64,000 bases of DNA from an uncultured Acidobacteriota bacterium (GCA_963789135.1 CAWBJJ010000002.1:355701-419700); one strand, 5' to 3'; shown: positions 1-50,996, numbered from the stretch's first letter. A program made the numbers and translations. Notes: generated by a model from the letters alone, not told the origin.

Positions 1-1516
1 GATGCTCACCCTGGTCCTCGCCGGGAACTACGCGATGTTGTTCCTGGGGTGGGAGCTGGTCGGGCCTCTGCTCCTACCTGCTGATCGGGTTCTGGTTCAC
101 CCGCCCCACCGCCGCAGCTGCGGCCAAGAAGGCCTTCATCGTCAATCGGATCGGGGACGTCGGGTTCATGGTCGGCCTGATGCTGGTCTTCACCACGTTC
201 GGCACTCTGTCCTACTCCGGTGTCTTCGAGAATGCCGGGTCGGAGCTGAGCACCGGGATGGCCACTGCCATCGGCCTTCTTGTTCCTGGTGGGCGCCGCC
301 GGCAAGTCGGCGCAGATCCCGCTCTATGTCTGGCTGCCCGACGCCATGGAGGGCCCCACTCCGGTCTCAGCCCTCATCCATGCCGCCACCATGGTCACCG
401 CCGGGGTCTACGTCATCGCCCGCTCTGCGCCGATCTACGACCTGTCGCGGTCGCCCAGGTCACCGTGGCCACCGTCGGGCGCTCTGACCGCGATCTGGGC
501 AGCATCGATCGCCCTTGCCCAACGCGACATCAAGAAGGTTCTCGCCTACTCCACGATCTCCCAGCTCGGCTTCATGTTCCTGGCGGTCGGGACCACGGCC
601 TACATCGCCGGGATCTTCCACCTGATGACCCACGCCTTCTTCAAGGCGCTCCTCTTCCTGGGGGCCGGCTCGGTGATCCACGGGATGAGCGACGAGCAGG
701 ACATGCACCGCATGGGCGGCCTGTTCAGGAAGATGCCGGTGACTGCGATCACGATGGCGATCGGGTCTGTGGCCCTGGCCGGGCTGCCCCCACTCGCCGG
801 GTTCTGGTCGAAGGACGAGATCCTGGCCGCCGGGTTCGCCCACGGCGGTTGGTATTACGCCTTGTGGCTGATCGGCCTGGTAACCGCTCTGATCACCGCC
901 TTCTACATCGCCCGGCTCTGGGTGCTGGTTTTCCTCGGTGAGCCACGCTGGGAGCAGGGCAAACACCCCCACGAGTCGCCGCGGATCATGACCATCCCCC
1001 TGATGGTCCTGGCCGGGCTCTCGGTGGTCGGCGGGTTGATCAACACCCCGTTTCGGCTCACCCTGGAGCAGTTCCTCGAGCCCAGCTTCGAAGGAGTGAC
1101 CATGGAGCACCCACCCGAGGACATCGACCGTGATCCTGATCCTGGCCGGGCTGTCGGTGCTGGCAGCCTCGGCTGGGGCCGCCGCGGGTGGCTGGCCTAC
1201 AACCGCCCGCCGGAGCGGTGGCGCCGCTTCGAGGAGGCTTTCCAGCCCCTGTGGGGAACCTGGGAGGCTGCCTACAGGGTCGACGACCTCTACGGGGCGG
1301 CACTGGTCGCTCCCGGGAAGAGGGCAGCCGAATTGGCAGCGTTCGGGTTCGACCTCCCGGTGATCGACGGTGCGGTCAACGGCGTCGGCCGGTTGGTCAG
1401 GACCAGCGGAGACTGGGCCCGCTCACTGCAGACCGGATTCGTCCGCAACTACGGGGTGATGTTCCTCGGCGGCGCCCTCATCGTGGTGCTGTGGATGGTG
1501 GTGGGGGAGCTCATGA
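1..1516 (+). CDS. nuoL: NADH-quinone oxidoreductase subunit L, copy 1 (5'-truncated by the window, several frameshifts)
   Basis: Motifs FLGWELVG, GKSAQIPLYVWLPDAMEGPTPVSALIHAATMVTAG, DIKKVLAYSTISQLG, HAFFKALLFL and C-terminal LQTGFVRNY. The likely true stop is TGA 1514-1516, which assumes one extra G in the run at 1503-1507. Confidence 0.92.
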
Positions 1517-1668
1517 ATTGTCGGCCGACTTCGCCCCTCAGCAACCCTCAGGGCACCTCGGACTTCGTGCCTCGGGTCAATGGACCTCGGGGCGAACAGA
1601 CGCCGGTCGGCCGCGGCTTCCGCCGCGTGGAGGGTTCCATTGCGGCGACCGGAGATCGCTCATGCTGA
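1513..1668 (+). other. Connector mini-ORF (51 aa, MNCRPTSP...GDRSC) spanning the hairpin insert between nuoL1 and nuoM1
   Basis: ATG 1513 overlaps TGA 1514-1516, and TGA 1666-1668 overlaps the nuoM ATG at 1662. As assembled it is in frame with nuoL, so it depends on the inferred indel. Confidence 0.45.
1522..1640. repeat. Palindromic intergenic element (REP/MITE-like), with a second copy inverted at ~50910-50965
   Basis: Inverted arms CGGCCGAC 1522-1529 / GTCGGCCG 1606-1613 and TTCGCCCC 1530-1537 / GGGGCGAA 1589-1596. Bases 1585-1613 match the reverse complement of 50938-50965 with 1 substitution and 1 indel. Confidence 0.75.
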
Positions 1669-3194
1669 CCGCTCTGGTTCTCATCCCGGTCGGCCGCAGC
1701 CCTCGCCGTCGCCCTGATCCCCTCGCGACGACGGGAGATCCATCTCCCGGTCGGTGTCGCCCTCTCCATCATCCCCCTGGCCCTCGCCGGCTACCTGTTC
1801 TGGGTGTTCGAGCCGTCGGCCGGCTACCAGTTCGTCGAGCAGGTCGTCTGGTACCAGCCGTGGGGGATCAGCTGGTACCTGGGCGTGGACGGGATCTCAC
1901 TGCCGATGGTCGTACTCAGCACCCTGCTGGTGCCGATCGCCCTCGGGGCATCGACCGCGATCAAGGTGCGGACCAAGGAGTTCGTGGTCTACACCCTGCT
2001 CCTCGAGGCCGGTCTGATCGGCGCCTTCCTGGCGCTCGACCTCTTCCTGTTCTTCGTGTTCTTCGAGGTGATCCTGATCCCGATGTACTTCATCATCGGG
2101 ATCTGGGGCGGGGAGCGTCGCATCTACGCCGCGGTCAAGTTCTTCATCTACACCGCCTTCGGGTCAGCCTGATGATGGCCGCGATCATCGCCCTCGCCTT
2201 CAACCACGCCTCGCAGTTCGGGGTGCCGTCGTTTGCCCTCCCCGACCTGATGAACCTCGATCTGGGGCGGTCCGCCGAGATCTGGCTGTTCGCGGCGTTC
2301 GCCCTCGCCTTCGCCATCAAGGTCCCGTTGTTTCCCACTCCACACGTGGCTCCCCGACGCCCACGTCGAGGCGCCAACCGCGGGCTCGGTGCTGCTGGCC
2401 GGAGTGCTGCTGAAGTTGGGCACCTATGGGCTGCTCCGGTTCAACCTCTCCCTGTTCCCCGAGGCATCGGTGGACGCGGTGCAGATCATGGCGATCCTCG
2501 CCGTCAGTCGGGATCATCTACGGCGCCGTCGTGGCCATCGTCCAGCCCGACCTCAAGAAACTGGTCGCCTACTCCTCGGTCAGCCACCTTGGCTTCATCG
2601 TCTTCGGGACCTTCGCCCTGACCTCAGGGGGCCTACAGGGGGCGGTCATCCAGAACGTGAACCACGGCCTGACCACTGGCGCACTGTTCCTATTGGTTGG
2701 GATGATCTACGAGCGGCGCCACACCAAGGCGATCGCCGACTTCGGGGGCCTGCAGAAGGTGATGCCCCTGTTCGCGGGGTTCTTCTTGTTCATGGCCTTC
2801 GCCTCGATCGGCCTGCCCGGGCTGAATGGGTTCGTCGGAGAGTTCCTCGTGCTGATCGGGAGTTATGTGACACTCCCCGCTCTCGCGGTGATCGCCGCCT
2901 TCGGAGTGCTCCTGGCCGCCGTCTATCTGTTGTGGGCCTACGAGCGCGTTTTCACCGGAGTGCCCGACAAGCCGGACAACCTGGCCCTCACCGATCTCTC
3001 GGTGCGGGAGATCGCCCTTCTCGCCCCGCTGGCGGTCCTGGTGTCTGGTCATCGGTCTCTATCCCGGTCTGCTGCTCGACAAGATCACTCCGTCCACCGA
3101 GGCGGTCCTGGATCGCATCGAGGCGGCCACCGGTTACGCGACGCCGGCCCCCGGTCGGTTGGCCGACGTCGTCGTCGTGGAGGCAGGCGAGTGA
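1662..3194 (+). CDS. nuoM: NADH-quinone oxidoreductase subunit M, copy 1 (frameshifted)
   Basis: [56 protein letters not shown] and [12 protein letters not shown] pieced together across frames. Confidence 0.92.
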
Positions 3195-4629
3195 TCGCAA
3201 CTCCCGAGATCCTCTGGCTGTCGATCCTCCCCGAGCTCGTCCTTGCCGTCGGGGCCGCCCTGGTGTTGCTGGTCGAGGTGCAGTGGAAGCCGAGAGCCCG
3301 CGTGTTGGGCGTGGTTGCCGCGGCCGAGCCTGATGATGGCGGCCGGCTTCACAATTTGGCAGTGGGTCGACACCGGCACCGGCGAGCTCGCCTTCTCCGA
3401 GATGATCGTTCTCGACGGCTTCGCAGTCTTCGCCCGCATCGTCCTGTTGGCGGCCACCGCGCTCGGCTTGCTGGCCGGGTGGCGTTTCATCGAGGGACTT
3501 GGACGCCGGGGAGCGGAGGCGCTCGCCCTGACACTCCTGGCAACGACCGGATTCTCGATCATGGTCGCCTCCAACAACCTGGTGATGATGTTCCTCGGCC
3601 TGGAGGTGGGGTCGATCGCCCTGTATGTCCTGGCCGGCATGACTCGTGAGCGATCGGAGTCAGACGAGGCCGCGATCAAGTACTTCCTGCTCGGGTCGTT
3701 CGCCTCGGCGGTCTTCGTTTACGGAGTGGCCCTCCTCTATGCCGGGACCGGGACCTTCTCCATCGTGGACATTCGCGATTTGTTGGCCGGATCGACCATC
3801 GCCAGCCCCGCTGTGATCTACATCGGGGTCGGGCTCGTGGTGGCAGGCCTCGGGTTCAAGGTGTCGGCCGCCCCGTTCCACAGCTGGGCGCCGGACGTGT
3901 ACCAGGGTGCGCCTGCGGGGATCGTCGGCTACATGGCGGCGGTCGCCAAGATCGCCGGCTTCGCCGCCCTGACCCGGGTGCTTCTCGCCGGGGTCGGCGG
4001 ACTCGACGCCACCTGGCTCCCGGTGGTGGCTGCGATCGCCACGCTGTCGATGCTCGTGGGCTCAGTCGTGGCACTGGTCCAGGGTGACGTGCGGCGGATG
4101 CTGGCGTACTCGGGCGTAGCCCACGCCGGGTTCATCATGACCGGGGTCGTGGGCGGGGCCAGCGACGGGGTTCTCTTCTATCTCGCGGCATACTCGATCC
4201 AGTTGGTGGGTGCTTTTGCCGTGGTTGCCGCAGTGAGCGGCCCAGACGGGGCTCGATCGTCGATCGACGATTATCGAGGTTTGGGACGTCGAAGCCCGGT
4301 GCTCGCGGGGTCGTTCACAGTCCTGCTCCTGGCGATGGGCGGGATACCTCTCACCTCCGGATTCGTCGCAAAGTTCGGCGTGCTCTCCGATGCCTGGGCG
4401 ACCAGTTACCAGTGGCTGGTCGTCGTGGCGGTGCTGGCCTCGGTGATCGCCCTGGCCTTCTACATCCGGGTCATCGTCGTGATGTACATGGACGACTCTG
4501 ACGAGCTCCTCACTGTCCGTGGTGCTCCCGGTCCGAGTGGTGCTGGGGATCGCGGTCGCCGTCACATTGCTCTGGGGGATCTTTCCGGGGTCGCTACTCG
4601 ACTTCGCAGCCGATGCACTCCCCCTCTAG
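3191..4629 (+). CDS. nuoN: NADH-quinone oxidoreductase subunit N, copy 1 (frameshifted)
   Basis: GTGA overlap with nuoM. Motifs [58 protein letters not shown]. Confidence 0.92.
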
Positions 4630-12700: not shown

Positions 12701-13702
12701 CTATTGGTTGAGGGCCCGGCAGGAACGCCGGATCACCAACTCGGTGGGAAGCGTGAGGTGCGTGGGCTCAATCTCGGGGTCGTCGATGAGGGCGACGAGC
12801 AACTCGGCCGCCTCGTAACCCATCTGCTGGATCGACTGGTCGATGGTGGTCAGGGGAGGCGTGGATAGAGCCGACTCCGGGATGTTGTCGAAGCCGATCA
12901 CCGAGAGATCGTCAGGGATGGAGAGCCCTAGTTCCCGTGCCACCTCCATGATCTCGATGGCTGACATGTCGTTGGCAGCGAACACCGCCGTCGGTGGCTC
13001 GGCCAATTCGAGGAGCTCATGGGCCGGCGCCTCGGTCGCTTCCTTGGTATATGAGCCGACCCGGACCAGGTTGGGGTCGTACGGGATCCCTGCCTGCTCC
13101 AGTGCGCGGCGGTATCCCTGCTCGCGGAGCCGGGCCGACTCCAGGTCAGGACGACCGGCGATGAATCCGATCCGTCGATGGCCGAGCCCGATGAGGTATT
13201 CGGTCGCCTTGACCGCCCCTTCGAGGTTCTGGGAGGCCACTGTGGGCAGGCCCGACATCCCGGCATGAGGGTCGACAGCAACGACCGGCGCCGCACTCGT
13301 CACCTCGGTCACGGTGGGGGTCACCAGGATGGTGCCGTCGGCCAGGGTCCCATTGAGCCGGGATAGATACTTGCGCTCCCAACCGACCTGCTCCCGGAGA
13401 TGCCCGCCTCCCGAGTAGACGAAAAGCTCCCACCCGGTCCAATGGATTGCCCTGGCCGCGCCCTTCAACAACTCGGCGCTGAAGGGCTCGAGGTCGGGCA
13501 CGATGATCCCCAAGACGTTGGTCCGCCGGCTGCGAAGGCTCCTTGCAACGAGGCTGGACTCATAGCCGAGGTCGTCGATGACCGCCTTCACCCGGCCCTG
13601 GGTCTCGGCGGCGACCCCGTAGCGGCCGTTGACGACCCGGGAAACGGTGGCGATGGAGACACCGGCCTGCTCCGCTACGTCTCCGATGGTGACCCGCGTC
13701 AT
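12701..13702 (-). CDS. LacI-family transcriptional regulator
   Basis: VTIGDVAEQAGVSIATVSRVVNG HTH, GHRRIGFI, PTAVFAAND, SVIGFDN, PPLTTI. Confidence 0.95.
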   Translation of the reverse strand: MTRVTIGDVAEQAGVSIATVSRVVNGRYGVAAETQGRVKAVIDDLGYESSLVARSLRSRRTNVLGIIVPDLEPFSAELLKGAARAIHWTGWELFVYSGGGHLREQVGWERKYLSRLNGTLADGTILVTPTVTEVTSAAPVVAVDPHAGMSGLPTVASQNLEGAVKATEYLIGLGHRRIGFIAGRPDLESARLREQGYRRALEQAGIPYDPNLVRVGSYTKEATEAPAHELLELAEPPTAVFAANDMSAIEIMEVARELGLSIPDDLSVIGFDNIPESALSTPPLTTIDQSIQQMGYEAAELLVALIDDPEIEPTHLTLPTELVIRRSCRALNQ

Positions 13703-13721
13703 CCTCGCGATAGCTCCGTCC

Positions 13722-13759
13722 TGAAAACGATTCCGACATCGTTGTCGATAACGATTACA
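13722..13759. promoter_or_regulatory. Three abutting LacI-type operator-like sites upstream of lacI
   Basis: TGAAAACGATTCCG, CGACATCGTTGTCG and GATAACGATTACA repeat at ~12 bp spacing. The first shares TGAAAACGATT with the 12629 site. Confidence 0.6.
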
Positions 13760-13815
13760 GAACTTAGGGCGTGTGAGGATGTCATGACGGCCAGAAACAG
13801 AATTTCTCGCGGCGC

Positions 13816-15319
<1,504 letters not shown>

Positions 15320-15373
15320 GCCTGCCGGGTCGTCATGAGCGGGACGGTAACGGCGATACCGGCTCTTGCATCC

Positions 15374-15400
15374 GGTTTCAAGGTGGGCCGCAACGGGTAA
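15374..15400 (+). promoter_or_regulatory. SigF/SigB-type promoter for the CBS gene
   Basis: GGTTT-N16-GGGTAA, 24 bp before the ATG, with SD AAGGAGG. Confidence 0.75.
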
Positions 15401-15424
15401 CCGAGGCAACAAGGAGGAATTCGA

Positions 15425-15850: not shown

Positions 15851-15913
15851 TCCCCACCTGCCGCGCTGTGCGTCGGGCGTCTACGGCGTCGACTCCAATA
15901 TCGTTGGCGCCAG

Positions 15914-17617: not shown

Positions 17618-17627
17618 CGGGATAAGG

Positions 17628-20266: not shown

Positions 20267-20267
20267 T

Positions 20268-30684: not shown

Positions 30685-30762
30685 CAGCTCCTCGTTTGGA
30701 GGCTCCTCCGCCTTGCCCTTGCCCAGTTCCTCGTTTGGAGGCTCCTCCGCCTTGCCCTTGCC
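30685..30762. repeat. 39-bp tandem duplication (2 copies, 1 mismatch)
   Basis: CAG(C/T)TCCTCGTTTGGAGGCTCCTCCGCCTTGCCCTTGCC at 30685-30723 and 30724-30762. Confidence 0.9.
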
Positions 30763-30773
30763 CATCGGCTTTG

Positions 30774-30977: not shown

Positions 30978-31017
30978 GATCTTCCTCCAGGTTGGGATCC
31001 TTCCCCTGACTTCAGCC

Positions 31018-32256: not shown

Positions 32257-32622
32257 ATGACTCCGTACTTCGAGAGCTATCTGACGGTCGGCGCCTTCGC
32301 CGCTCTGGGAGCGATCCTGGTGATGGTGATGCTCGGTGTGGCATCGGTGCTCCGGCCCACCAACCCCACCACGGCCAAAGAGCTCACCTATGAGTGCGGG
32401 GTCGATCCGGTCGGGTCTGGCTGGAACCAGACCTACGTCCGGTACTACGTCTACGGGCTTCTCTTCGTGATCTTCGACGTGGAGGCGGTCTTCATCTTTC
32501 CCTGGGCCATCGTCCTCGAGCGTCTCGGCACCTTCGGCCTGGTCGAGATGTTCATCTTTATCGACATCCTCATCCTTGGACTGGTGTACGCCATCCGCAA
32601 GGGAGTCATGAGGTGGGAGTAG
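32257..32622 (+). CDS. nuoA: NADH-quinone oxidoreductase subunit A
   Basis: [31 protein letters not shown]. Confidence 0.96.
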
Positions 32623-33110
32623 CCCAGAAGTTCGGCATGCCGAAGCCGGTCACCTGGCTGCTGAACTGGTCGAGGAGCTATTCGCTCTGGTTGTTTCAGT
32701 TCGGTTTGGCATGTTGTGCCATCGAGTTGATGGCAGCGTCCGGCCCCAGGTACGACTTCATGAGGTTTGGCATCATCCCGTTGCCGGCCTCCCCCAGGCA
32801 GGCCGATCTCATGGTGGTGGCGGGCACTGTCACCGACAAGATGGCCCCCTCCGTGAAGCGCCTCTACGACCAGATGCCAGATCCAAAGTACGTCATCTCG
32901 ATGGGCTCATGCGCCAATTGCGGTGGGCCGTATTGGGACTCTTATTCGGTGACCAAGGGGGTCGATCAGGTGATCCCGGTGGACGTCTACGTGCCGGGTT
33001 GCCCGCCACGACCTGAAGCGTTGATGGACGGGATCGTTCTCCTCCAGAAGAAGATCCGGGGCGAAGAGATCAAAGCGAAGTGGAACCAGCGTGACCTCGA
33101 GCCCGTCTGA
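32613..33110 (+). CDS. nuoB: NADH-quinone oxidoreductase subunit B
   Basis: [45 protein letters not shown]. Confidence 0.96.
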
Positions 33111-33696
33111 GACCGAGACCACTCCTCATCCGCTCCAGGAGTACGCCGACCGGGTAGCGGGTGTCGTCGGCGGAACCGCCGAGATCATGTTCGACACCAT
33201 CAAGGTGAAGGTGCCCGCCGAGCAGTGGCCCGATGCCCATGAGCGAGCAAGGGATGAGTTGGGCCTCGTTTTCTTCTCCTGGTTGTCGGCAGTTGACTGG
33301 GCAGAAGAGGTAGCGGTTGGCGATCCCCCTGGTGGGGACGTGAGCGACCATTTCGAGATGCTCTCCACTCTGGGCGACGTCAGCGAGGGTCGCCGGGTCA
33401 CGTTCAGCACTGAGATCTCGAAGAGCTCGCCCTCCATCGCCAGCCTGGTGCAGGTTTTCGTCGGCGCCAACTGGCACGAGCGGGAGGCGGCCGAGATGTT
33501 CGGGATCGACTTCGTCGGGCACCCCGACCTTTCCCACCTCTACCTGCCCGACGCTTTTATCGGCAACCCGCTCCGAAAGAGCTATCCGCTATTGAGCCGG
33601 GAAGTGAAGCCATGGCCGGGGACCGTCGACGTGGAAGGCATGCCCGGCAGCCCGGCGGAGCCGACCGAGCCGTCTGAAGAGAACCCGGAGGCCTGA
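33091..33696 (+). CDS. nuoC: NADH-quinone oxidoreductase subunit C
   Basis: [37 protein letters not shown]. Confidence 0.95.
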
Positions 33697-33697
33697 G

Positions 33698-34888
33698 TTG
33701 GTCGTCGACCAGGACCTGGTCCGTCACCTCTCGGAGGCCGCGGTGTCGGTTGAGTTGGAGACGCCGGACATGACGCTGAACATCGGCCCCCAGCACCCCT
33801 CGACACACGGTGTGCTCCGCCTGGTGGCCAGGGTCGACGGGGAACGGGCATATGACGTCCATCCGGTCATCGGTTACATGCACCGCGGATACGAGAAGCT
33901 CTCCGAAGTGCGGACATACCCCCAAATCACCACGCTGGTCAACCGCATCGACTGGGTTTCCGGATACGCCAACGAGGTCCCGTTCGTCATCGCGGCAGAG
34001 AAGCTGATGGGACTCGAGGTCCCTGAGCGGGCGCAGTACATCCGCCTGATCCTCACCGAGATCGCTCGCATCTCCTCCCATCTCATCTTCATGGCCTCGT
34101 ACCCGCTCGAGTTGGGTGCTGCGACCCCGTTGTTCTTCGCGCTTCGGGAGCGGGAGCGGATGCTCGACCTGTTGGAGGGAGTCACCGGAGGCCGATTCCA
34201 TCCCAATTTCAACCGGATCGGCGGGGTAAAGCCCGCCTACGGGTCGGGGTCTCAGACCAGGAAGCTGCCCCAGGACCTGCCGGCGGGATTCCTCGCCGAG
34301 ACCAGGGAGGCAGTCGACCAGGTGCTCATTGTCGTCGACGAGATCGAAGACCTGGTCGCCGGGAACGAGATCATCCTGGCCAGGACCAAGGGCATAGGAA
34401 TCCTTCCGCCCGAAGTCGCGGTGGCATACGGGGTGTCCGGGCCCAATCTCCGGGCGTCGGGGATTGCCTTCGACCTCCGTCGCGCCGAGAGCTATCTGCC
34501 CTATGACCGGTTCGACTTCGAGATCCCGGTGGGGGAGAACGGTGACTGTTGGGACCGGTGGTGGGTCCGGCTCGCCGAGATCCGACAGTCGGCTCGCATC
34601 ATCCAACAGGCGGTCGATGGGATCCCGTCCGGCCCGCTCCAGGCCAAGGTCCCCAAGGTGATAAAGGTCCCCAAGGGCCAGACCTATGTGCGGGCCGAGA
34701 ACCCCAAGGGGGAGATGGGGTACTACCTGGTGTCGGAGGGAGGGCAAGGCCCGTACCGGCTCAAGATCCGCTCCGCCAGCTTCTCCAACCTCTCGATCCT
34801 GCCCTGGATCCTCGAAGGGGTGCTGGTCCCGGACATCATCGCCATCATGGGGAGCCTCGACTTCGTGCTCGGAGACGTGGACAGATGA
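33698..34888 (+). CDS. nuoD: NADH-quinone oxidoreductase subunit D
   Basis: LNIGPQHPSTHGVLRL, IGYMHRGYEK, ENPKGEMG, GSLDFVLGDVDR. No NiFe CxxC motifs. Confidence 0.96.
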   Translation: MVVDQDLVRHLSEAAVSVELETPDMTLNIGPQHPSTHGVLRLVARVDGERAYDVHPVIGYMHRGYEKLSEVRTYPQITTLVNRIDWVSGYANEVPFVIAAEKLMGLEVPERAQYIRLILTEIARISSHLIFMASYPLELGAATPLFFALRERERMLDLLEGVTGGRFHPNFNRIGGVKPAYGSGSQTRKLPQDLPAGFLAETREAVDQVLIVVDEIEDLVAGNEIILARTKGIGILPPEVAVAYGVSGPNLRASGIAFDLRRAESYLPYDRFDFEIPVGENGDCWDRWWVRLAEIRQSARIIQQAVDGIPSGPLQAKVPKVIKVPKGQTYVRAENPKGEMGYYLVSEGGQGPYRLKIRSASFSNLSILPWILEGVLVPDIIAIMGSLDFVLGDVDR

Positions 34889-35010
34889 GAGGAACGTCAA
34901 TCGTCAATCGTCAATCGTCGATCGTCAGCACGGGCACGAATCTGGCGTTTTGCGTTTTGCGTTTTGCGTTTTGCGGGTCGCTCAGGAAGGACTCGATGTG
35001 TCCTTCCTGA
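34885..35010 (+). other. Connector mini-ORF (41 aa, MRGTSIVNRQSS...KDSMCPS) at the nuoD-nuoH junction
   Basis: ATGA overlap with the nuoD stop. Its stop at 35008-35010 lies 13 nt into nuoH (GTG 34998). Confidence 0.55.
34895..34975. repeat. Heptamer tandem repeats: (CGTCAAT)x3 plus 2 variants, and (GCGTTTT)x4
   Basis: Read directly at 34895-34929 and 34945-34975. Confidence 0.92.
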
Positions 35011-36002
35011 GCGATCTCTTCTCCAACTTCTGGGTCTCCCTGGCGGGGAAACTGCTGCTCGTCGCGCTGATGATCCCGCTGGTCGGGATGGTCATCGGGT
35101 TCGCCGAGATGAAGCTCTCCGCGAAGATGCAGGCCCGGGTCGGCCCTTATTTCGCGGGAGGTCGCTGGGGGTGGGCCCAGCTCATCGCCGACGGCGTCAA
35201 GTTCTTCCAGAAAGAGGACCTGATCCCCGAGGAGGCGGACCGGCCGGTCTTCAAGTTCGCGCCGGTTCTCGTCCTGGTCGGCACCGTGGCGCTCCTGGTG
35301 GTGATCCCTTTCGGCCCGGGGCTGATCTTCCGTGACCTTTCGGTAGGGGTGTTCTATGCCCTGGCGATCTCATCGCTGAGCACCATCGGGATCCTGATGG
35401 CGGGCTGGTCCTCGGCCAACAAGTACTCGCTGATGGGTGGGTTGCGCGCCGCCGGCCAGCTCATCGCGTATGAGTTGCCCCTGGTGCTGGCGGTGATCGG
35501 CTCGGTGATGTTGGCGGGGACCATGAGCATGACCGGCATCGTCGAGGCTCAGATCGAGGCCGGTTACCCGTTCGTCGTCATCCAGTTCATCGGGTTTGCG
35601 GTGTTCATGATCGCCGCCCTCGCCGAGCTGACCCGGATCCCCTTCGACATGCCAATCGCCGAGTCGGAGTTGGTCATGGGCTACCTGACCGAGTACTCCG
35701 GGTTCCGCTTTCTCTTCTTCTTCCTGGCCGAGTTCGCAAACATGTTCACCCTCTCGGCGATCGCAGTCACGCTGTTCCTCGGCGGGTACTGGCTCCCTGG
35801 CGTCCCTGAAGATGTTCTCGCCTACGCCGGCCCGGTGATCCTGGTTGGGAAGACCTTCATCCTCGTTTTCGTGATGATCTGGTTCCGGTGGACCTTCCCC
35901 CGCTTCCGCGAGGACCAGTTGCAAGGTCTCGCCTGGAAATGGCTGGTGCCGATCGCGCTGGCCAACATCCTGCTCACCGGCGCATTCATGGTGTTCACGT
36001 GA
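34998..36002 (+). CDS. nuoH: NADH-quinone oxidoreductase subunit H
   Basis: [69 protein letters not shown]. Confidence 0.96.
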
Positions 36003-36496
36003 CCGATACCGCGACGCGCCGCATCCCCGGAATCGGGATGCTCAAGGGCCTCTGGGTGACGATCTACACGATGTTCCGAACCATCTTCCGGCCAGGGAAG
36101 TACCTCGCCACGGTGAACTACCCGGTGGTCAAGGAGACCCTGGTTCCCCGGGCCAGGGGTGTGATCGCGCTGGATCAGGAAGCGTGCACCGTGTGCATGC
36201 TCTGCGCCCGCTCCTGCCCGGACTGGTGCATCTACATCGAGGGCCACAAAGAGGAGCAAGCGCCGGCCACTCCTGGAGGCAGGATCAAAGTCCGCGCCAC
36301 TCTCGACCGCTTCGACATCGACTACGCCCTCTGCATGTACTGCGGGATATGTGTCGAGGTTTGCCCGTTCGATGCCCTGTTCTGGTCGCCGGAGTACGAA
36401 TACTCGGAGACCCGGATGGGCGAGATGATGCATGACATGGACCGTCTCCAGGACTGGCTGACCACGGTCCCCGACGCCCCGGAGCTCGAAAAGTGA
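35999..36496 (+). CDS. nuoI: NADH-quinone oxidoreductase subunit I
   Basis: Two CxxCxxCxxxCP motifs ([24 protein letters not shown]). Confidence 0.96.
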
Positions 36497-37044
36497 GTTT
36501 CGCCGATTGGGCGTCCGAACCGGTGAACTGGGTGTTCGCAGTCGTCGGGGTCGCCGTTCTCTACTCCGCCTGGCGTGTGGTGACGGCGAAGAACGTGGTC
36601 CATGCTGCGCTGTTCCTGGTGGGAGCCCTCGCCGGCACGGCGGCCGTGTTCCTGATCCTGTCCGCCGAGTTCGTTGCCTGGGTACTGGTGCTGGTCTACA
36701 TCGGAGCAGTGATCGTTCTATTCCTCTTCGGGATCATGATCACCAGGGCCCCGACCGGCCAGGACCAAGGGCTCGACAGCGACCAGAAGATCTGGCCCGC
36801 CTTGCTCTCCATCGCCACCTTCCTGATTCTCTCCTGGGCGTCGATACAGGCCTTTGGAACCCAGACGATCACCAACCCCGGTCAGGAGACCCCGACGGAA
36901 GTGCTCGGCGAGGCGTTGCTCGGCCGATTCGTGATCCCCTTCGAGGTGGTCTCGTTCATCCTCCTCGCTGCGCTCATCGGGGGGATCACTATCGCCAGGC
37001 GCGACTTGACCCCCATCGAGGAAGAAGAGAGGAGCGCGGTATGA
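36493..37044 (+). CDS. nuoJ: NADH-quinone oxidoreductase subunit J
   Basis: [40 protein letters not shown]. Confidence 0.96.
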
Positions 37045-37163
37045 GAGCTCGCTCGCTGCGCTCGCTCATCGTCCATCGCAAATCGCAAATCGCACAGCGC
37101 AAGACGATCTGCGTTCAGCGGTTTGCGGGAGCACCTTTCACCGGAGGTCGGCGGTGCTCCTGA
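37041..37163 (+). other. Connector mini-ORF (40 aa, [21 protein letters not shown]...RRCS) with ATCGCAA-type heptamers at the nuoJ-nuoK junction
   Basis: ATGA overlap with the nuoJ stop. Its stop at 37161-37163 overlaps nuoK (GTG 37154). Heptamers ATCGTCC ATCGCAA ATCGCAA ATCGCAC AGCGCAA at 37068-37102. Confidence 0.55.
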
Positions 37164-37459
37164 ACCAGTTCTTGATCCTCGCTGCTGCTCTCTTCGCTCT
37201 CGGCATCTACGGCCTCCTCGTCAGGCGAAACCTGGTGCTGATCCTCCTTTCGGTGGAGTTGATGCTGGCCGCGGTCAACATCAACCTGATCGCCTTCGAG
37301 TCGGTGCTGCGCTCCAGCCAGGCTGTCGGTCAGGTCTTCTCGGTGTTCGTCATCACCGTTGCCGCCGCCGAGGTCGGGATCGGCCTGGCGATAGTCCTCA
37401 TGGTCTTCCGCAACCGGAAGTCAGCCAATGTCGACGAGCTCAACCTGATGAGGTGGTGA
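37154..37459 (+). CDS. nuoK: NADH-quinone oxidoreductase subunit K
   Basis: RRNLVLILLSVELML, GQVF, VAAAEVGIGLAI. Confidence 0.96.
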   Translation: MLLNQFLILAAALFALGIYGLLVRRNLVLILLSVELMLAAVNINLIAFESVLRSSQAVGQVFSVFVITVAAAEVGIGLAIVLMVFRNRKSANVDELNLMRW

Positions 37460-37533
37460 TGAGGCGTCGCTTCGCTCGCCGTTGTGCATGTCGCGTGTCA
37501 CGTGTCACGTGTCACTTGGAGATCACATCGTGA
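37459..37533 (+). other. Connector mini-ORF (24 aa, MRRRFARRCACRVSRVTCHLEITS) with (CGTGTCA)x3 at the nuoK-nuoL junction
   Basis: TGATG overlap with the nuoK stop and GTGA overlap with the nuoL start (37530). Repeats at 37487-37514. Confidence 0.55.
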
Positions 37534-39557
37534 TCTCCGTCCTTGCCACCGAAGCCGAGCACACCGTCGAGGCGGGGATCACCGGCGGGTTCTGGCCGGA
37601 CACCGCTGGGATCATGCTCATCCTCCCGTTCGTCGCCTTCCTCCTGATCCTGGCGTTCGGCAAGCGACTCAAGAACAACGGTGCGGAGATCGCGATTGGC
37701 GCCCTGGCCATCAACAGCGTCTGGGCCACGGTCCTCTTCGTGATGAACATGACGCAGGGTGTCCTCGCCGAGACCACGTTCGAGATCGGACGCATCGGCA
37801 GCGGATTGATCTTCGAGTTGGGGTGGGTGGTCGACGGGCTCTCGATCATGATGTACTTCCTGGTCAGCGTCGTGGGGCTGATCGTCTTCATCTACGCCGC
37901 CGGCTACATGAAGGGGGATGTCAGGGTGGACTGGTTCTTCGCCGCCTTCTCGTTGTTCGCCGGATCGATGCTGATCCTGGTGGGGGCGCCCAACCTGATC
38001 CAGCTCATCATCGGTTGGGAGGGGGTTGGCCTCGCCTCCTACCTGCTCATTGGCTTCTACTGGGAGGACATGGCGAACGTGAATGCCGGCAACAAGGCGT
38101 TCATGACGAACAAGGTCGCCGACGTCGGCCTGATCCTGGGCGCGGTGATCCTCGGCGTTTCAGTCGGCACCTTCGATTTTCTCGAGATAAATGAGTTGGC
38201 TGCCGACCACTCGGAAGCCCTCGGCGCAGTAGCGGTCGTCGCCGGGGCGCTGCTGTTCTTCGGGGCGATGGGGAAGAGCGCACAATTCCCGCTCCACATC
38301 TGGCTTCCCGATGCCATGGCTGGACCGACCCCGGTCTCCGCCCTGATGCACGCGGCCACGATGGTCACCGCCGGCATCTACCTCATGGGCCGAATGTTCC
38401 CGCTGTTCGAGTACCTGGCTGCCGACCTCAGGCCATGGATGGTCGCAATCGGGACGATCACCCTCTTTGCTCTGGGATTCCTGGCACTGGTGACAGACGA
38501 CATCAAGAGGGTCCTCGCTTACTCGACTGTCTCCCAGTTGGGGTACATGATGACCGCGATAGCGGCAGGGGGATACACCGCCGGGCTCTTCCACCTGTTC
38601 ACGCATGCCTTCTTCAAGGCCCTGCTCTTCCTCGGTGCCGGCTCGGTGATCCATGCTGTCCACTCCAACAACATGAGTGACATGGGCGGGCTCCGCAAGT
38701 CCATGCCCAGGACCTATTGGACCTTTCTCATCGGCTCGCTGTCACTGGCCGGGATCATCCCCCTCGCCGGGTTCTGGTCCAAGGACGAGATCCTGGTGAC
38801 CCTGGGCGTCGAGGGATACACCGTGGTGATGTGGATCGCCATCGCCGGGGCCTTCGTCACCGCCTTCTACATGACCCGGGCCGTTGCCCTCACCTTCTTC
38901 GGCGAGTACAAGGGCCATGGACACCCCCACGAGTCTCCAAGGATCATGACCGGCGCCTTGATCGCCCTCGCCGTGCCTTCGGCGCTGTTCGGGCTTTTCA
39001 ACATCCCGGGGGTGGAGTGGCCGGTGATCGGGAACTTCGGCGAATGGCTGGCGGTCCGGGCCGTGCCGATGGGCGACCACCACGCGGAAGCGATCAACTT
39101 CGCCCTGGTCGGGAGCGGGCTGTTCGCGGCTCTGGCCGGCATTTTCCTCGGCTGGCGGGTTTGGGGCAGGGACCGGGACACACAGGCCGAGCGAGACCGG
39201 TTCGAGATCCCTGTTTTCTATCCCCTGTTGCGCCGCAAGTACTACATCGACGACGCAGCCGACGGGGTTGTTGCCGCCACGATGGGCCCGTTCGCCCGCT
39301 CCATCAACTGGGTCAACGACTACGTGATCGACGCCGTCGTCAACGGCGCCGCCTTCGCCACCAAATCGCTTGGCGCGTTTGTCTATGGCGTGGTCGACCA
39401 ACGCGGTGTCGACGGTGTGGTCCATGGCTTGTCTGCCGGCGTCGACGGCGCCGGCTCGGCGGTCCGGCGGTGGCAGACCGGCAGAGTGCAGCAGTACGCG
39501 GCCTCCTTCGTGGGAGGGGTCTTGGTGCTGATCGTCCTTTTCGTGTTCGTGATATAG
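37530..39557 (+). CDS. nuoL: NADH-quinone oxidoreductase subunit L, copy 2
   Basis: IGWEGVGLASYLLIGF, GKSAQFPLHIWLPDAMAGPTP, HAFFKALLFL, QTGRVQQYA. Intact ORF with SD GGAG. Confidence 0.96.
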   Translation: MISVLATEAEHTVEAGITGGFWPDTAGIMLILPFVAFLLILAFGKRLKNNGAEIAIGALAINSVWATVLFVMNMTQGVLAETTFEIGRIGSGLIFELGWVVDGLSIMMYFLVSVVGLIVFIYAAGYMKGDVRVDWFFAAFSLFAGSMLILVGAPNLIQLIIGWEGVGLASYLLIGFYWEDMANVNAGNKAFMTNKVADVGLILGAVILGVSVGTFDFLEINELAADHSEALGAVAVVAGALLFFGAMGKSAQFPLHIWLPDAMAGPTPVSALMHAATMVTAGIYLMGRMFPLFEYLAADLRPWMVAIGTITLFALGFLALVTDDIKRVLAYSTVSQLGYMMTAIAAGGYTAGLFHLFTHAFFKALLFLGAGSVIHAVHSNNMSDMGGLRKSMPRTYWTFLIGSLSLAGIIPLAGFWSKDEILVTLGVEGYTVVMWIAIAGAFVTAFYMTRAVALTFFGEYKGHGHPHESPRIMTGALIALAVPSALFGLFNIPGVEWPVIGNFGEWLAVRAVPMGDHHAEAINFALVGSGLFAALAGIFLGWRVWGRDRDTQAERDRFEIPVFYPLLRRKYYIDDAADGVVAATMGPFARSINWVNDYVIDAVVNGAAFATKSLGAFVYGVVDQRGVDGVVHGLSAGVDGAGSAVRRWQTGRVQQYAASFVGGVLVLIVLFVFVI

Positions 39558-39572
39558 GAGAGGCTGAAGGAG

Positions 39573-41189
39573 ATGGAATTGTTCGAGACCTGGGCGCTCA
39601 CTCTGATCGTGTTCCTGCCCCTGGCGGGCGCGCTGCTGCTCGGATTCATTCCGAAAGAGAGGGAAGGGGCCATCAAGGCCGCAGGGCTCCTGTTCACCGT
39701 CCTGGCCTTCATCGCCTCCCTCGTGGTCATCAGCCAATTCGACTTCGCCAATCCGACTTACAACACGTATCAGTTCGAGGTCAACCAGCCCTGGATCAGT
39801 GCGATAAACGCCAACTATCACCTCGGGGTGGACGGCATCAGCCTCCCGCTCCTGGTCCTCTCCACGTTCATCATGGTTCTGGCGGTCATCTACAGCTGGA
39901 ACCACTGGGAGGAGCCCAAGAACCCCAAGCTCTTCCTCATCCTGATGCTCATCCTGGGAACCGGTCTCAACGGCACTTTCGTTGCTCTCGATCTCGTCTT
40001 GTTCTTCATCTTCTTCGAGGTAGTGCTGGTCCCGATGTACTTCATGATCGGGATCTGGGGCGATCGCTCGATGCGGACCATCCCCGGATTCGGCCGCGAG
40101 GTCCAGACCAGGCTCTACGCGTCGATCAAGTTCTTCCTGTTCACTCTCTTCGGGTCGGCGTTCATGCTCCTCGGCTTCCTGGCCCTCTATTTCCAGTCCG
40201 GGGAGTTCGGGGAGCGCACCTTCGATATCCCGCAATTGACCGACCTGGGTGCGTCGGGCGCCTTTACGGGTAGCGGCTTCGCCTTCTGGGTTTTTGGAGC
40301 CATGTTCCTCGGATTCGCAGTGAAGGTCCCGATGTGGCCATTCCACACCTGGCTGCCCGATGCCCACACCGCGGCGCCAACGGTGGGATCGGTCCTGCTC
40401 GCTGCGATCATGCTGAAGCTCGGTTCCTACGGTTTCATCAGAATTTCGATCCCGATCCTCCCCGAGGAGGCTGCGAACTGGGCACCGGCGATCGCGATCC
40501 TCGCCGTGATCGGGATCATCTACGGATCGCTGGCTTGCCTCGCCCAGACCGACATGAAGCGGCTGATCGCCTTCTCATCGGTGGGTCACATGGGGTTCGT
40601 CATGCTCGGGATCGCGACGATGTCCGATGTCGGGATCAACGCAGCGATCATCGGGATGGTGGCCCATGGCCTGATCACCGGCCTGCTCTTCTTCCTCGCT
40701 GGATCGATGTCACACCGCTACCACACCCGGGAGATGTCCCGTCTCGGGGGCAACATCAAGCTGATGCCGGTGATGGGTGGGATTCTGGCCTTTACCGCGA
40801 TGGCTTCCCTGGGTTTGCCCGGGCTCGCCGGATTCTGGGGGGAGTTCATGTCGTTGGTCGGGGCATATAACCCGCTCCCCGGGCTCTCCCTCGGCGTGTT
40901 CCGGACGGCCATGGTCATAGGAGCGATCGGCACCGTGCTCACCGCTGGCTACATGCTCTATCTCCTGCAGCAGGTCAACCTCGGTGAGCCCGGCGAGGAG
41001 TGGAAGGGCCATGAGTTTCACGACGTCGACCGGTTCGAGATGACTGCTTGGGTGCCTCTGATCGTCCTCATCGTGGTCATCGGCTTTTTCCCCAAAGTGA
41101 TCTTCGATTCGACCACCGATGCGGTGACCTCACTGGTGAACACCGTGTTCAACGCCGAGACAACGGCATCGTTGGGGTCGGGCGGCTGA
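39573..41189 (+). CDS. nuoM: NADH-quinone oxidoreductase subunit M, copy 2
   Basis: [44 protein letters not shown]. Confidence 0.96.
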   Translation: MELFETWALTLIVFLPLAGALLLGFIPKEREGAIKAAGLLFTVLAFIASLVVISQFDFANPTYNTYQFEVNQPWISAINANYHLGVDGISLPLLVLSTFIMVLAVIYSWNHWEEPKNPKLFLILMLILGTGLNGTFVALDLVLFFIFFEVVLVPMYFMIGIWGDRSMRTIPGFGREVQTRLYASIKFFLFTLFGSAFMLLGFLALYFQSGEFGERTFDIPQLTDLGASGAFTGSGFAFWVFGAMFLGFAVKVPMWPFHTWLPDAHTAAPTVGSVLLAAIMLKLGSYGFIRISIPILPEEAANWAPAIAILAVIGIIYGSLACLAQTDMKRLIAFSSVGHMGFVMLGIATMSDVGINAAIIGMVAHGLITGLLFFLAGSMSHRYHTREMSRLGGNIKLMPVMGGILAFTAMASLGLPGLAGFWGEFMSLVGAYNPLPGLSLGVFRTAMVIGAIGTVLTAGYMLYLLQQVNLGEPGEEWKGHEFHDVDRFEMTAWVPLIVLIVVIGFFPKVIFDSTTDAVTSLVNTVFNAETTASLGSGG

Positions 41190-41193
41190 CCTG

Positions 41194-42678
41194 ATGCCCT
41201 ACGAGATCGACTATCTGGCGCTGGCTCCCGAGTTGGTCGTTATCGCGACCATGCTCGGGGTGTTCACCCTCGATCTCCTCCTACCCCGCTCCAAGAAGTT
41301 CTGGACCGCGACCATGGCCGTCGCGGGCACTGCTCTTGCCGCGGTGCCACTCGTCGTCTTGGCAGTGGAAGGAACCACAGTCTCGATGTTCGATGGGTCA
41401 TACGTGGTTGACGACTTCGCAATCATCCTCAAGGCGGTCTTCATCGTCGCGGCCTACATCGTGATGCTGATGTCCCACCACTACATCGAGTCCGACCGCT
41501 ATTACCAAGGCGAGTACTACTTCCTCCTCCTCGCCTCCGTGCTCGGCTCCCTGGTCATGGCGTCGGCACGGGACCTGATCATCCTCTTCATTGGGCTGGA
41601 ACTGACCACCGGGCCGCTCTACCTCCTGGCCGGGTGGAGAAAGGGCGATGCCAGGTCCAATGAGGCGTCGATGAAGTACTTCATCCTCGGCATCCTTTCC
41701 ACGGCGATATTGCTCTACGGGATGTCCATGCTCTACGGGCTGACTGGCGAGATCACCTTCGCCGGCCTGGCAGGCACGACAGGAGCCTTGGTCGACGAGC
41801 CGATGATGGTGGTGGCGGTCCTGGCGCTGATAGTCGGCTTCGGGTTCAAGACCTCGGCAGTCCCATTCCACCTCTGGGCGCCGGACACCTATGAGGGGGC
41901 ACCGACTCCCATCACCGCCTACCTGTCGGTGAATTCCAAGGCAGCCGGGTTCGTCGGATTCCTCCTGGTCATGTACCAGGCCCTTCCCGATCTCTCCGAG
42001 ATCTGGGCGCCCGCTCTGTGGCTCCTGGCGGCGGCCTCGATGACGATCGGCAACCTGGGAGCGCTTCGACAGACCAACGTGGTCCGGCTGCTCGCCTACT
42101 CGTCGATCGCACAGGCCGGGTTCATGCTGGTCCCCTTCGCCTCAGCAGCGGTCGCCGGAACGGACCTGGCAGAGGCATTCTCGGCAACCCTCGTCTACCT
42201 GGTGATCTACGCAGTGATGAACCTGGGCGCGTTCGCGGTGGTGATTGCCGCTGCTCGGAAGACGCGGTCCGGCGAGATCAAGGCCTGGTCGGGCCTGGCT
42301 CAAGTCGACGTCCGGCTCGGCGCTCTGGTCACCGTGTTCTTCTTCAGCCTTGCCGGCATCCCGCCCCTTGCCGGGTGGTTCGCCAAGTTCGTGATGTTCC
42401 GATCGGCGATAATCGTTGGCGGCACCTCGACGGTGGTGCTGGCCGCGATAGCCGCCGTCAACTCGGTGATCGCCCTCTACTACTACGCCCGGGTGGTCAA
42501 GGCGGTGTGGCTCGATGACCCGATCGGCGATTTCGCTCCGGATGCCGAGGCCGCGCCGGCGGGCTCGTTGCGTCTTGCACTCATCATCTCGCTGGGAGTC
42601 ACCGTGGCAGTTGGGCTGTTCCCGGCCATCGTGACGTTCGTCGGTGACGCCAGCCGAGTCATCGCCAGCGGGGGCTAG
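41194..42678 (+). CDS. nuoN: NADH-quinone oxidoreductase subunit N, copy 2
   Basis: SNEASMKYF, GFKTSAVPFHLWAPDTYEGAP, RLLAYSSIAQAG, AGIPPLAGWFAKF. Confidence 0.96.
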   Translation: MPYEIDYLALAPELVVIATMLGVFTLDLLLPRSKKFWTATMAVAGTALAAVPLVVLAVEGTTVSMFDGSYVVDDFAIILKAVFIVAAYIVMLMSHHYIESDRYYQGEYYFLLLASVLGSLVMASARDLIILFIGLELTTGPLYLLAGWRKGDARSNEASMKYFILGILSTAILLYGMSMLYGLTGEITFAGLAGTTGALVDEPMMVVAVLALIVGFGFKTSAVPFHLWAPDTYEGAPTPITAYLSVNSKAAGFVGFLLVMYQALPDLSEIWAPALWLLAAASMTIGNLGALRQTNVVRLLAYSSIAQAGFMLVPFASAAVAGTDLAEAFSATLVYLVIYAVMNLGAFAVVIAAARKTRSGEIKAWSGLAQVDVRLGALVTVFFFSLAGIPPLAGWFAKFVMFRSAIIVGGTSTVVLAAIAAVNSVIALYYYARVVKAVWLDDPIGDFAPDAEAAPAGSLRLALIISLGVTVAVGLFPAIVTFVGDASRVIASGG

Positions 42679-42719
42679 CTGCGCCGCAAATCGCAAATCG
42701 TTTTGCGTTTCGCGCCAGC
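42678..42719. repeat. Inverted heptamer arrays (CGCAAAT)x2 / (CGTTTYG)x2 forming a hairpin after nuoN (possible terminator)
   Basis: Read directly. Same heptamer family as 34945-34975 and 37075-37102, between convergent genes. Confidence 0.7.
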
Positions 42720-42728
42720 CGCGATGCC

Positions 42729-49694: not shown

Positions 49695-49733
49695 TGTTAC
49701 CCTGGCTGAGGAGCGTCGTCGGAGGTTGACACA

Positions 49734-50892
49734 TTGGAAATCGACATCGGGATCGGCAAGTCAGGGCGACAGGCTTTCGGCTTTGACGACATAGCGATCG
49801 TCCCTTCCCGGAGGACCCGGGATCCCGATGATGTCGACATCTCGTGGCAACTCGATGCGTTCAAGTTCCCACTGCCGATGATGGGATCCGCAATGGACAG
49901 CGCGATCAGCCCGGCGACCGCCGTGGAGATCGGCAAGCTGGGCGGTCTAGCGGTTCTCAACCTCGAGGGTCTGTGGACCCGGTACTCCGACCCCCAGCCC
50001 TACTTCGACGAGATTGCCGAGCTCAGCAAAGAGAAGGCGACGCTGCGAATGCAGGAGATCTACCTCGAACCGGTCAATCCGGATCTGATCGGGCAGAGGA
50101 TCTCCGAAATCAAGGCGGCAGGCGTCGTCACCGCAGGGAGCCTGACACCGCAACGGGTTCGCGGCGTGGGCCCCTCATGCCATATCGGCAGGCCTCGATG
50201 TTCTCGTGATTCAGGGGACTGTTGTCTCCGCAGAGCACGTGTCCAGTCGGGAGGAGCCGCTCAACCTCAAGGAGTACATCGCCAAATGCGAGGTGCCGGT
50301 GATCGTCGGTGGTTGCGCCAGCTACTCGACTGCACTGCACCTGATGCGGACCGGAGCCATCGGGGTCCTGGTCGGCGTTGGGCCCGGAGCCGCGTGCACC
50401 ACGAGAGCTGTGCTCGGCGTCGGCGTGCCCCAGGCGACGGCGATCGCCGACGCCGCGGGCGCGCGGATCAGATACCTCGATGAGACAGGGCGCTACGTCC
50501 ATGTGATCGCCGACGGCGGGATGCGCACCGGTGGAGACGTCGCAAAGGCCATCGCTTGTGGCGCCGATGCCGTGATGATCGGCTCACCTCTGGCGTCCGC
50601 GAGCGAAGCGCCGGGGCGGGGATATCACTGGGGCATGGCGACCTTCCATCCCACGCTTCCCCGTGGGGCCCGGGTCGAGGTCGGCGACAGGGGGACTCTC
50701 GCCGAGATCCTCGTTGGCCCGGCCCATGAGAACGACGGAAAGCTCAATCTCTTCGGGGCACTGACCATGTCGATGGCCACGACCGGCTACTCGGATGTGA
50801 AGGAATTCCAGAAGGCCGAGGTGATGATCGCCCCTTCGCTCCAGACCGAGGGCAAGTCGTTGCAACGCAACCAGCGGGTCGGGATGGGATGA
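49734..50892 (+). CDS. guaB3: GuaB3-family IMP dehydrogenase (frameshift ~50160-50190)
   Basis: [52 protein letters not shown]. Confidence 0.92.
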
Positions 50893-50996
50893 CCCCTCGC
50901 GTGAGATCGGGGGCACGGCTCCGCAGAGCGGCAGCCCCGGCCGACCGGCGTCTGTTTGCCCGAGGCGGTTGGAGAAGGATTGCGGCGCCCAGATGA
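50889..50996 (+). other. Connector mini-ORF (35 aa, [35 protein letters not shown]) over an inverted copy of the 1585-1640 element
   Basis: ATGA overlap with the guaB3 stop (50890-50892) and ATGA overlap with the guaA start (50993). Confidence 0.55.

Follow-up and report, generated by a model that had tools for sequence, protein, structure and literature searches.

At four places in a 64,000-nucleotide stretch of genomic DNA (GCA_963789135.1 CAWBJJ010000002.1:355701-419700, hereafter the window), repeat-derived inserts separate genes that normally abut. Three of these inserts lie inside the nuoA-N operon for complex I, and one lies between guaB3 and guaA. Each is crossed by a short open reading frame (ORF), here called a relay ORF, that begins on the stop codon of the upstream gene and ends at the start of the downstream gene. 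The same arrangement is present at most inserted nuo junctions of related Acidimicrobiia, where it occurs above chance and where the lengths and reading frames of the inserts carry a comparative signature of selection. We consider it likely that selection has kept a frame open between a relic start codon and a relic stop codon, and that this frame would act as a relay based on termination and reinitiation. Judging from these sequence features, ribosomes probably still pass from gene to gene across the inserts.

The window corresponds to positions 355701-419700 of contig C2 in genome G000, which comprises 2.2 Mb in 11 contigs, has a GC content of 65% and is an estimated 76% complete. Genes were called with a home-made caller that uses a dicodon model trained on G000; the calls are crude and the starts are heuristic. 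Matches to the Pfam entries Complex1_49kDa, NADHdh, IMPDH domain and GMP synthase were confirmed for the genes that flank connectors. At nuoD/nuoH, nuoJ/nuoK, nuoK/nuoL and guaB3/guaA, the TGA of the relay ORF is located 1-10 nt into the downstream gene, and the Shine-Dalgarno (SD) sequence of that gene is inside the insert (Table 1). Both ends of the relay ORFs thus have the geometry of termination-reinitiation, with ATGA and TGATG overlaps.

An earlier examination of the window from its sequence alone (the sequence-only reading) had proposed five such connectors, and for these four the coordinates, lengths and overlaps hold exactly. The nuoA-N operon, with three of the connectors, has no frame changes in 32257-42678. 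The fifth connector, between nuoL1 and nuoM1, stands in part. An open frame does cross the whole insert and finishes on the start of the next gene, but in the assembly it forms a C-terminal extension of nuoL1 and not a separate ORF. Specifically, the nuoL1 frame (ORF 280..1668, as assembled) continues through ATG 1513 and stops at TGA 1666-68, in overlap with the nuoM1 ATG (position 1662); the TGA at 1514-16 is out of the nuoL1 frame. The need for an indel at this site had been flagged when the connector was proposed.

To place these junctions in context, nuo operons were compared between the window and 36 relatives, all of them metagenome-assembled genomes (MAGs) of Acidimicrobiia. Three unpublished genomes (G011, G027 and G038) were excluded from every count. 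The D/H, I/J, J/K and K/L junctions are overlaps of -4 or -1 or gaps of a few nucleotides in many relatives, and carry inserts of 22-197 nt in others. The connectors therefore reside in real insertions, as had been supposed, and the empty sites are -4 or -1 overlaps. The L/M junction is an ordinary SD spacer of 12-16 nt throughout and serves as a control.

Junctions with spacers of 20-300 nt were scored. A junction was called bridged when an ATG, GTG or TTG begins at stop-1 or stop+2 of the upstream gene, the frame from that NTG stays open up to the downstream start, and the stop of this relay frame begins within -2 to +13 of that start. The null model consisted of dinucleotide shuffles of the insert interior in which the flanks were left intact and the frame was randomised by dropping 0, 1 or 2 nt. 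By this measure 55 of the 75 nuo junctions, including three from the window, are bridged, compared with 13.4 expected from the shuffles. The bridged fractions are 13/15 at D/H, 11/12 at I/J, 12/12 at J/K, 11/15 at K/L and 5/9 at M/N, with 1/6 at L/M, 1/2 at C/D, 1/2 at H/I and 0/2 at B/C. When 1 or 2 nt are removed from the middle of the inserts, 3 or 4 of the 75 are still bridged.

Two additional measures are independent of start calls. Of 67 core junctions, 51 have a spacer length of 1 mod 3, nine of 0 and seven of 2. The relay frame is open throughout the insert interior at 61 of these junctions, whereas the two alternative frames are open at 37 and 40. Because related genomes are not independent, inserts were clustered before testing. 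The 51 clusters obtained at 70% identity include 40 that are bridged, where 9.7 are expected (binomial p 7e-20), and 37 with spacers of 1 mod 3 (p 1e-8). Clustering at 80% identity gives 47 bridged clusters among 59. Single-linkage clustering at 60% identity placed 58 of 67 inserts in one cluster and was replaced by these two thresholds.

The frame is also maintained when the length of an insert changes. Homologous inserts of the congeners G008 and G007 differ by 24, 3, 24, 75 and 9 nt at D/H, I/J, J/K, K/L and M/N, respectively. All of these differences are multiples of 3 and none is a multiple of 7, which argues for conservation of the frame and not for switching. A further suggestion of the sequence-only reading, namely that changes in repeat number tune the expression of downstream genes, thus finds no support.

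A second set of loci reproduced the pattern. This set comprised 80 further nuoK loci from named species representatives, four of which duplicate the first set, leaving 76 genomes. Among the Acidimicrobiia-like loci, 31 of 46 junctions are bridged, and the spacers number 33, 5 and 8 for residues 1, 0 and 2 mod 3. None of 11 junctions from other phyla is bridged, and the corresponding spacer counts there are 2, 3 and 6. The core of the earlier proposal, that repeats have entered coupled, overlapping junctions and that in the survivors an open frame connects the stop of one gene with the start of the next, is supported by the mod 3 counts, the open interiors, the effect of removing 1 or 2 nt and this replication.

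Within G000, a survey of co-directional gene pairs with spacers of 50-250 nt, which had been proposed as a check, shows the expected enrichment. Spacers with period-7/8 arrays are bridged in 5 of 25 cases (0.78 expected), and repeat-free spacers in 10 of 377 (9.5 expected), which is no enrichment. The five bridged repeat spacers are nuoD/nuoH, nuoJ/nuoK, nuoK/nuoL, rpsJ/rplC and secY/adk. Most of the unbridged arrays are preceded by a TAA or TAG stop and resemble operon ends, and one is located directly after nuoN. A genome-wide form of the mod 3 rule was considered for G000 and rejected, as spacers of 70-119 nt show no bias (35, 37 and 49 for residues 0, 1 and 2). The effect is therefore limited to inserted operon junctions. 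These inserts sit inside nuoA-N, rpsJ-rplC, secY-adk and guaB3-guaA, which are presumably co-transcribed given their gene order.

Table 1. Relay ORFs, inserts, hairpins and related features of the window (positions counted from its first nucleotide)
Feature	Position	Strand	Details
Relay ORF nuoD to nuoH, 41 aa	34885..35010	+	ATG 34885, forming ATGA on the nuoD stop (34886-88); open to TGA 35008-10, 10 nt into nuoH; nuoH start GTG 34998
Relay ORF nuoJ to nuoK, 40 aa	37041..37163	+	ATG 37041 on the nuoJ stop (37042-44); open to TGA 37161-63; nuoK start GTG 37154
Relay ORF nuoK to nuoL, 24-25 aa	37456..37533	+	nuoK stop 37457-59; GTG 37456 and ATG 37459 in the same frame to TGA 37531-33; GTGA overlap with nuoL at end; nuoL start GTG 37530
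Relay ORF guaB3 (IMPDH-domain gene) to guaA, 35 aa	50889..50996	+	ATG 50889 on the upstream stop (50890-92); frame to TGA 50994-96; guaA start ATG 50993
Type A (~135-nt MITE-like) insert nuoL1/nuoM1	1513..1668	+	Read in the frame of nuoL1
nuoH hairpin, 15 bp, perfect	34978..35014	+	TCGCTCAGGAAGGAC / GTCCTTCCTGAGCGA; SD in 5' arm; GTG at edge of loop and 3' arm; relay stop in 3' arm
nuoK hairpin, 8 bp	37128-35 / 37153-60	+	GGAGCACC / GGTGCTCC; SD GGAGG in loop
nuoL hairpin, 9 bp	37518-26 / 37530-38	+	GGAGATCAC / GTGATCTCC
D/H heptamer arrays (TRF)	34895..34975	+	(CGTCAAT)x4.7 at 34895-34927; (GCGTTTT)x4.4 at 34945-34975
J/K insert	37075-37102 (array)	+	5' motif CTCGCTGCGCTCGC; array (ATCGCAA)x4
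K/L insert	37489-37515 (array)	+	Motif GTCGCTTCGCTCGC; array (TGTCACG)x3.9
nuoA-B-C-D-H-I-J-K-L-M-N operon	32257..42678	+	11 intact genes; hosts three inserts
Heptad array after nuoN TAG, for contrast	42679..42728	+	Short, palindromic (CGCAAAT repeats, then TTTGCG-type), between convergent genes; no overlapping start, no relay ORF

Insert composition and origin

There are two kinds of insert. One consists of hairpins formed from locus-specific heptamer arrays, and the other is an element of ~135 nt (type A) that resembles a miniature inverted-repeat transposable element (MITE). Tandem Repeats Finder (TRF) detects four period-7 arrays at the connectors of the window (Table 1); applied to the inserts, it gives arrays of period 7-8 and no long tandem unit. 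RNA folding predicts that the two unlike arrays of the D/H insert form the arms of an imperfect hairpin with heptad-periodic pairing. Among arrays of at least 2.8 copies throughout the genome, 31 of 42 with period 7 and 17 of 21 with period 8 are intergenic, compared with 8 of 99 with period 6 and 6 of 44 with period 9. The heptamer units vary between loci of G000. The longest heptamer arrays of this genome, CAGCTCC x10.7 (C2:13400-13475) and GCTCGGG x8.3 (C2:40982-41038), are in long unbridged spacers that follow TAA or TAG.

In the relatives, the stop codon is followed by a CTCGCTKCGCTCG-like motif and then by arrays in inverted pairs. The first set has this motif at 20 of its 61 inserted junctions and the second set at 3 of 37, compared with 30 of 5000 random windows. 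A loose scan of the genome that allowed two mismatches gave 164 matches, mostly spurious and intragenic, and only those located right after stops were used. The D/H, J/K and K/L inserts of the window fold with -48.1, -51.4 and -32.4 kcal/mol (z -3.3, -2.1 and -2.1), and the 61 inserts that were folded have a median z of -2.1, with 41% below -3, where all z-scores are from mononucleotide shuffles and are less strict than those from dinucleotide shuffles.

The type A element has eight blastn matches in G000, which represent related copies or cores on both strands. Its dispersed copies, found in both orientations and without the capacity to code for a transposase, are as expected of a MITE, and an inverted pair CGGCCGAC...GTCGGCCG is visible. 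A type A core is also found in reverse orientation in the guaB3/guaA insert (match C2:406628-406665, minus strand), and the element is present at K/L, I/J and K1/L1 in several relatives. A search of the window with Rfam 15 gave no match at the gathering score, and weak matches in 34700-37700 were at chance level only. The Y1 (RAYT) transposase domain PF01797 was not found in G000, of which 76% is represented.

Inserts at four or five nuo junctions of the loci L037, L040 and L042 (genomes G008, G007 and G015) share heptamer units within each genome (at least 70% identity), and these units differ between the genomes. Such sharing suggests that inserts may be copied from junction to junction within an operon. 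Inserts from different junctions of one genome often fall in the same cluster, which fits spread within a genome.

In one empty/filled pair at K/L, the empty site is TGATGAGCTTC and the filled site is TGATGA-insert-TGAGCTTC, such that TGA is present on both sides of a type A insert. At the nuoK1/nuoL1 junction of locus L067 (G009:C2:802000-810000, ~500-760), a type A element is flanked by a direct duplication of ~45 nt. The duplicated segment takes in the stop codon of K1 together with ~14 codons from the beginning of L1, and its length far exceeds that of a usual target-site duplication. In both examples, the upstream copy keeps the true stop together with a relic start, and the downstream copy has the true start together with a relic stop. 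A simple target duplication of 4-5 nt was considered as a general explanation and accounts for K/L, but judged by eye it does not account for D/H or J/K of the window. The two relics share a frame only if the insert plus the duplication amount to 2 mod 3, which makes the spacer 1 mod 3. Duplication thus explains the geometry of the junctions, and the excess of the 1 mod 3 class is the mark of selection.

From these arrangements we infer the following course of insertion, translation and reinitiation. Two repeat families, one behind the CTCGCTKCGCTCG-like motif and one MITE-like, would insert into NTGA-type overlaps of stop and start codons inside operons, and the junction tetranucleotide would end up flanking the insert on both sides. 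The upstream NTGA copy would provide the stop of the upstream gene and the relic start, and the downstream copy would provide the start of the downstream gene and the relic stop. An insert, or a length variant that arises from it later, would persist only if a single open frame joins its relic start to its relic stop, for which the spacer has to be 1 mod 3. A ribosome that ends translation of the upstream gene would reinitiate at the overlapping NTG, translate the structured insert, terminate atop the downstream start, whose SD is inside the insert, and reinitiate there. This two-step relay would preserve translational coupling in nuo, rpsJ-rplC, secY-adk and guaB3-guaA. In the genus represented by the window, the relay ribosome would also open a perfect hairpin that locks the SD and the start.

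These hairpins are perfect stems that link the SD region with the first codons of the downstream gene at nuoH, nuoK and nuoL. They are 8-15 bp in length and match the start of each respective gene. Such a stem is also present at the nuoK1/nuoL1 junction, which lies immediately upstream of the window. Stems of at least 8 bp are found at 9 of 62 inserted junctions, all of them in the window and the congeners G008 and G007, whereas none of 261 compact junctions and only 4 of 1819 gene starts in G000 have one. In more distant relatives, the SD is instead placed in the loop of a small hairpin. The stems may gate initiation, in which case a ribosome finishing the relay ORF would have opened them. 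A doubtful extension of this idea is that the heptad-array elements constitute a self-contained mobile coupling cassette. Such a cassette would target NTGA overlaps, carry the relay frame and SD, and build the SD/start lock by inverted copying of the first downstream codons, with heptamers that arise de novo wherever it inserts, through some templated process other than ordinary transposition.

Alternative explanations and exceptions

Stop codons are rare in GC-rich DNA and NTGA is common near starts, and bridging could therefore arise by chance. Shuffles that keep the flanks already yield 13.4 of 75 bridged junctions, and the repeat-free spacers of G000 are bridged as often as expected. Nevertheless, the observed 55 junctions, the cluster-level p of 7e-20, the second set and the complete lack of bridging among the 11 junctions of other phyla make this explanation hardly credible, and it was rejected on the shuffle, cluster and replication counts. 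It is also very improbable that the connectors encode functional small proteins, as might be thought of open frames that have start codons and Arg-rich products. The peptides share no sequence between junctions or between genomes, an extension of what the sequence-only reading had seen in the window, and the sole conserved DNA motif occurs in each of the three phases of the frame (13, 6 and 1 of 20). Moreover, close relatives are without the insert altogether.

The open frame might instead be a neutral by-product, in that the lengths and compositions of the elements happen to leave a frame open between duplicated NTGA copies with no selection on translation. A relic start and a relic stop do follow directly from duplication of the junction, and stop-free tandem heptamers are open in several frames, as is evident from the other two frames of the inserts. 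What makes this explanation improbable is that spacers ranging from 22 to 197 nt, with many distinct values, are nonetheless 1 mod 3 in 51 of 67 cases. In addition, length differences between related inserts are multiples of 3, although the gain or loss of one heptamer would shift the frame, and the same repeats outside operons are unbridged. A different proposal accepts translation of the inserts and holds that the frame is kept so that ribosomes cover the hairpins, thereby preventing Rho-dependent or intrinsic termination or attack by RNase, while the downstream gene initiates on its own SD. The inserts are indeed strongly structured, an SD for the downstream gene is present in each of them, and similar palindromic arrays at operon ends and between convergent genes are possible terminators. 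We regard this proposal as unlikely, given that perfect stems of 8-15 bp sequester the SD and the start codon in this genus, which argues against free initiation. Of 66 open-frame junctions, 55 also have the relay stop between -2 and +13 relative to the start, yet a relic TGA predicts this overlap under either model.

Several points weigh against a relay that operates at all inserted junctions. Twenty of the 75 junctions are unbridged. Among these, the inserts at L035 K/L, L051 D/H and L064 K/L are in frame with the downstream gene, which would be another route to stay translated, and the L031 K/L insert has an early stop. Four M/N junctions are also unbridged, and these, like several short L/M and B/C spacers, are ordinary. 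In G000, 20 of the 25 co-directional heptamer arrays and all of the convergent ones are without a relay ORF, so a relay ORF is no intrinsic property of the repeats. Furthermore, the downstream starts were picked by our own heuristic on home-made gene calls, all genomes are MAGs of which some probably contain indel errors, and the related genomes are not mutually independent. No contig from the RNA libraries spans an insert, and these libraries are uninformative on translation.

The guaB3/guaA junction, which is an overlap in most of the 28 loci compared, adds to these exceptions. Judged by eye, the inserted loci are mixed, with two bridged, two showing N-terminal extensions and three unbridged from an overlapping start. 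The bridged relatives are G009, with a spacer of 103 nt, and one other locus with a 15-codon relay that ends in GTGA. In L174 and L176 (G001 and G005), three GTACCAR heptamers are in frame at the GuaA N-terminus and are read as protein.

Relation to known systems

The concept of a relay through repeats is known from mycobacterial interspersed repetitive units (MIRUs), the description of which reportedly comes from Supply et al. in 1997 (Mol Microbiol 26:991). A passage in a review describes MIRUs with the same relay logic (PMC12548453), and most of these units are stated elsewhere to be intergenic and thought to be transcribed in polycistronic operons (PMC3635867). The two systems share repeats inside operons of an actinobacterium and an ORF that overlaps both the upstream stop and the downstream start. 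In contrast, the inserts described here are from Acidimicrobiia and consist of period-7/8 arrays in inverted pairs and a MITE-like element, whereas MIRUs are tandem units of tens of base pairs. The heptamers are also locus-specific, and SD/start hairpins are present in this genus. These distinctions are ones of architecture and not of sequence comparison. A search of the literature, with supplements outside its scope, found nothing on such elements in Acidimicrobiia or on MITEs linked to coupling. As far as these searches show, what is new is the lineage, the architecture of the repeats and the frame statistics over ~110 junctions.

Translational coupling is stated to need overlaps or very short distances (PMC10666635), and a spacer of 70-110 nt would therefore need a bridge. 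The ATGA and TGATG geometry of termination-reinitiation coupling is present at both ends of the relay, but here two successive reinitiations would take place via a non-conserved ORF, as proposed from sequence. A part of the review on MIRUs also covers upstream ORFs (uORFs) that serve solely to bring a ribosome to a structured start (PMC12548453). Both uORF delivery and bicistronic-design cassettes share with the connectors a short ORF that delivers the ribosome to a structured start. The connectors differ in being repeat-derived, in their location between two genes of an operon, and in that they would be entered by reinitiation and not at a 5' leader. The natural SD/start hairpins that would be opened by a relay ORF likewise resemble engineered bicistronic designs.

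Among repeats with a similar unit, the short tandemly repeated repetitive (STRR) sequences of cyanobacteria are intergenic tandem 7-nt repeats. The TAACTGA repeats of Beggiatoaceae are intergenic heptamer repeats as well (PMC4679880). Both share with the present arrays tandem 7-nt units concentrated in intergenic DNA. They have a single shared unit per genome, whereas the units described here vary by locus and are arranged in inverted pairs. We know of no relay ORF described for STRR or TAACTGA repeats. Repetitive extragenic palindromic (REP) sequences and bacterial interspersed mosaic elements (BIMEs), which are associated with REP-associated tyrosine transposases (RAYTs), are also palindromic repeats found inside and after operons. 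Here, however, no PF01797 domain was found in the 76% complete genome, and there is no common palindrome sequence.

The connectors provide a countable signature of non-conserved intercistronic ORFs that would be kept only to be read, namely a spacer of 1 mod 3, an open frame and overlaps at both ends, and this signature extends across ~110 independent-looking junctions in uncultured Acidimicrobiia. The logic known from MIRUs would accordingly be no mycobacterial oddity and may be a general way for repeats to live in essential operons, such as those for complex I, ribosomal proteins and secY-adk. In practical terms, relay ORFs should not be annotated as proteins, and spacers of 70-200 nt alone do not mark operon boundaries.

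Assembly support and other features of the window

DNA contigs of sequencing run X1 are identical to 36686-37166 and hence support the J/K insert as assembled. This run is possibly the source sample; the best DNA run shares 0.23 of the words. Contigs from RNA libraries match parts of nuoD, nuoH and nuoJ exactly. No length variants of the inserts were seen in contigs of the sequencing runs, which are uninformative on variation in repeat number.

The window begins within a second complex I cluster (nuoL1, nuoM1 and nuoN1), which occupies positions 1-4626 and ~370 nt upstream. Compared by tblastn with the intact genes of the nearest relative, G009, these three genes shift frame seven times. The cluster is either a decaying paralogous operon or a locally poor assembly. 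The IMPDH-domain gene is split over two overlapping ORFs in different frames (49734..50483 and 50206..50892), which suggests that it carries one further frameshift. In 13700-31000, the gene caller gives many short, low-scoring fragments, which may reflect further frameshifts, pseudogenes or atypical composition. Finally, TRF detects a 39-nt tandem repeat of 2.1 copies with 97% matches at 30685-30764.

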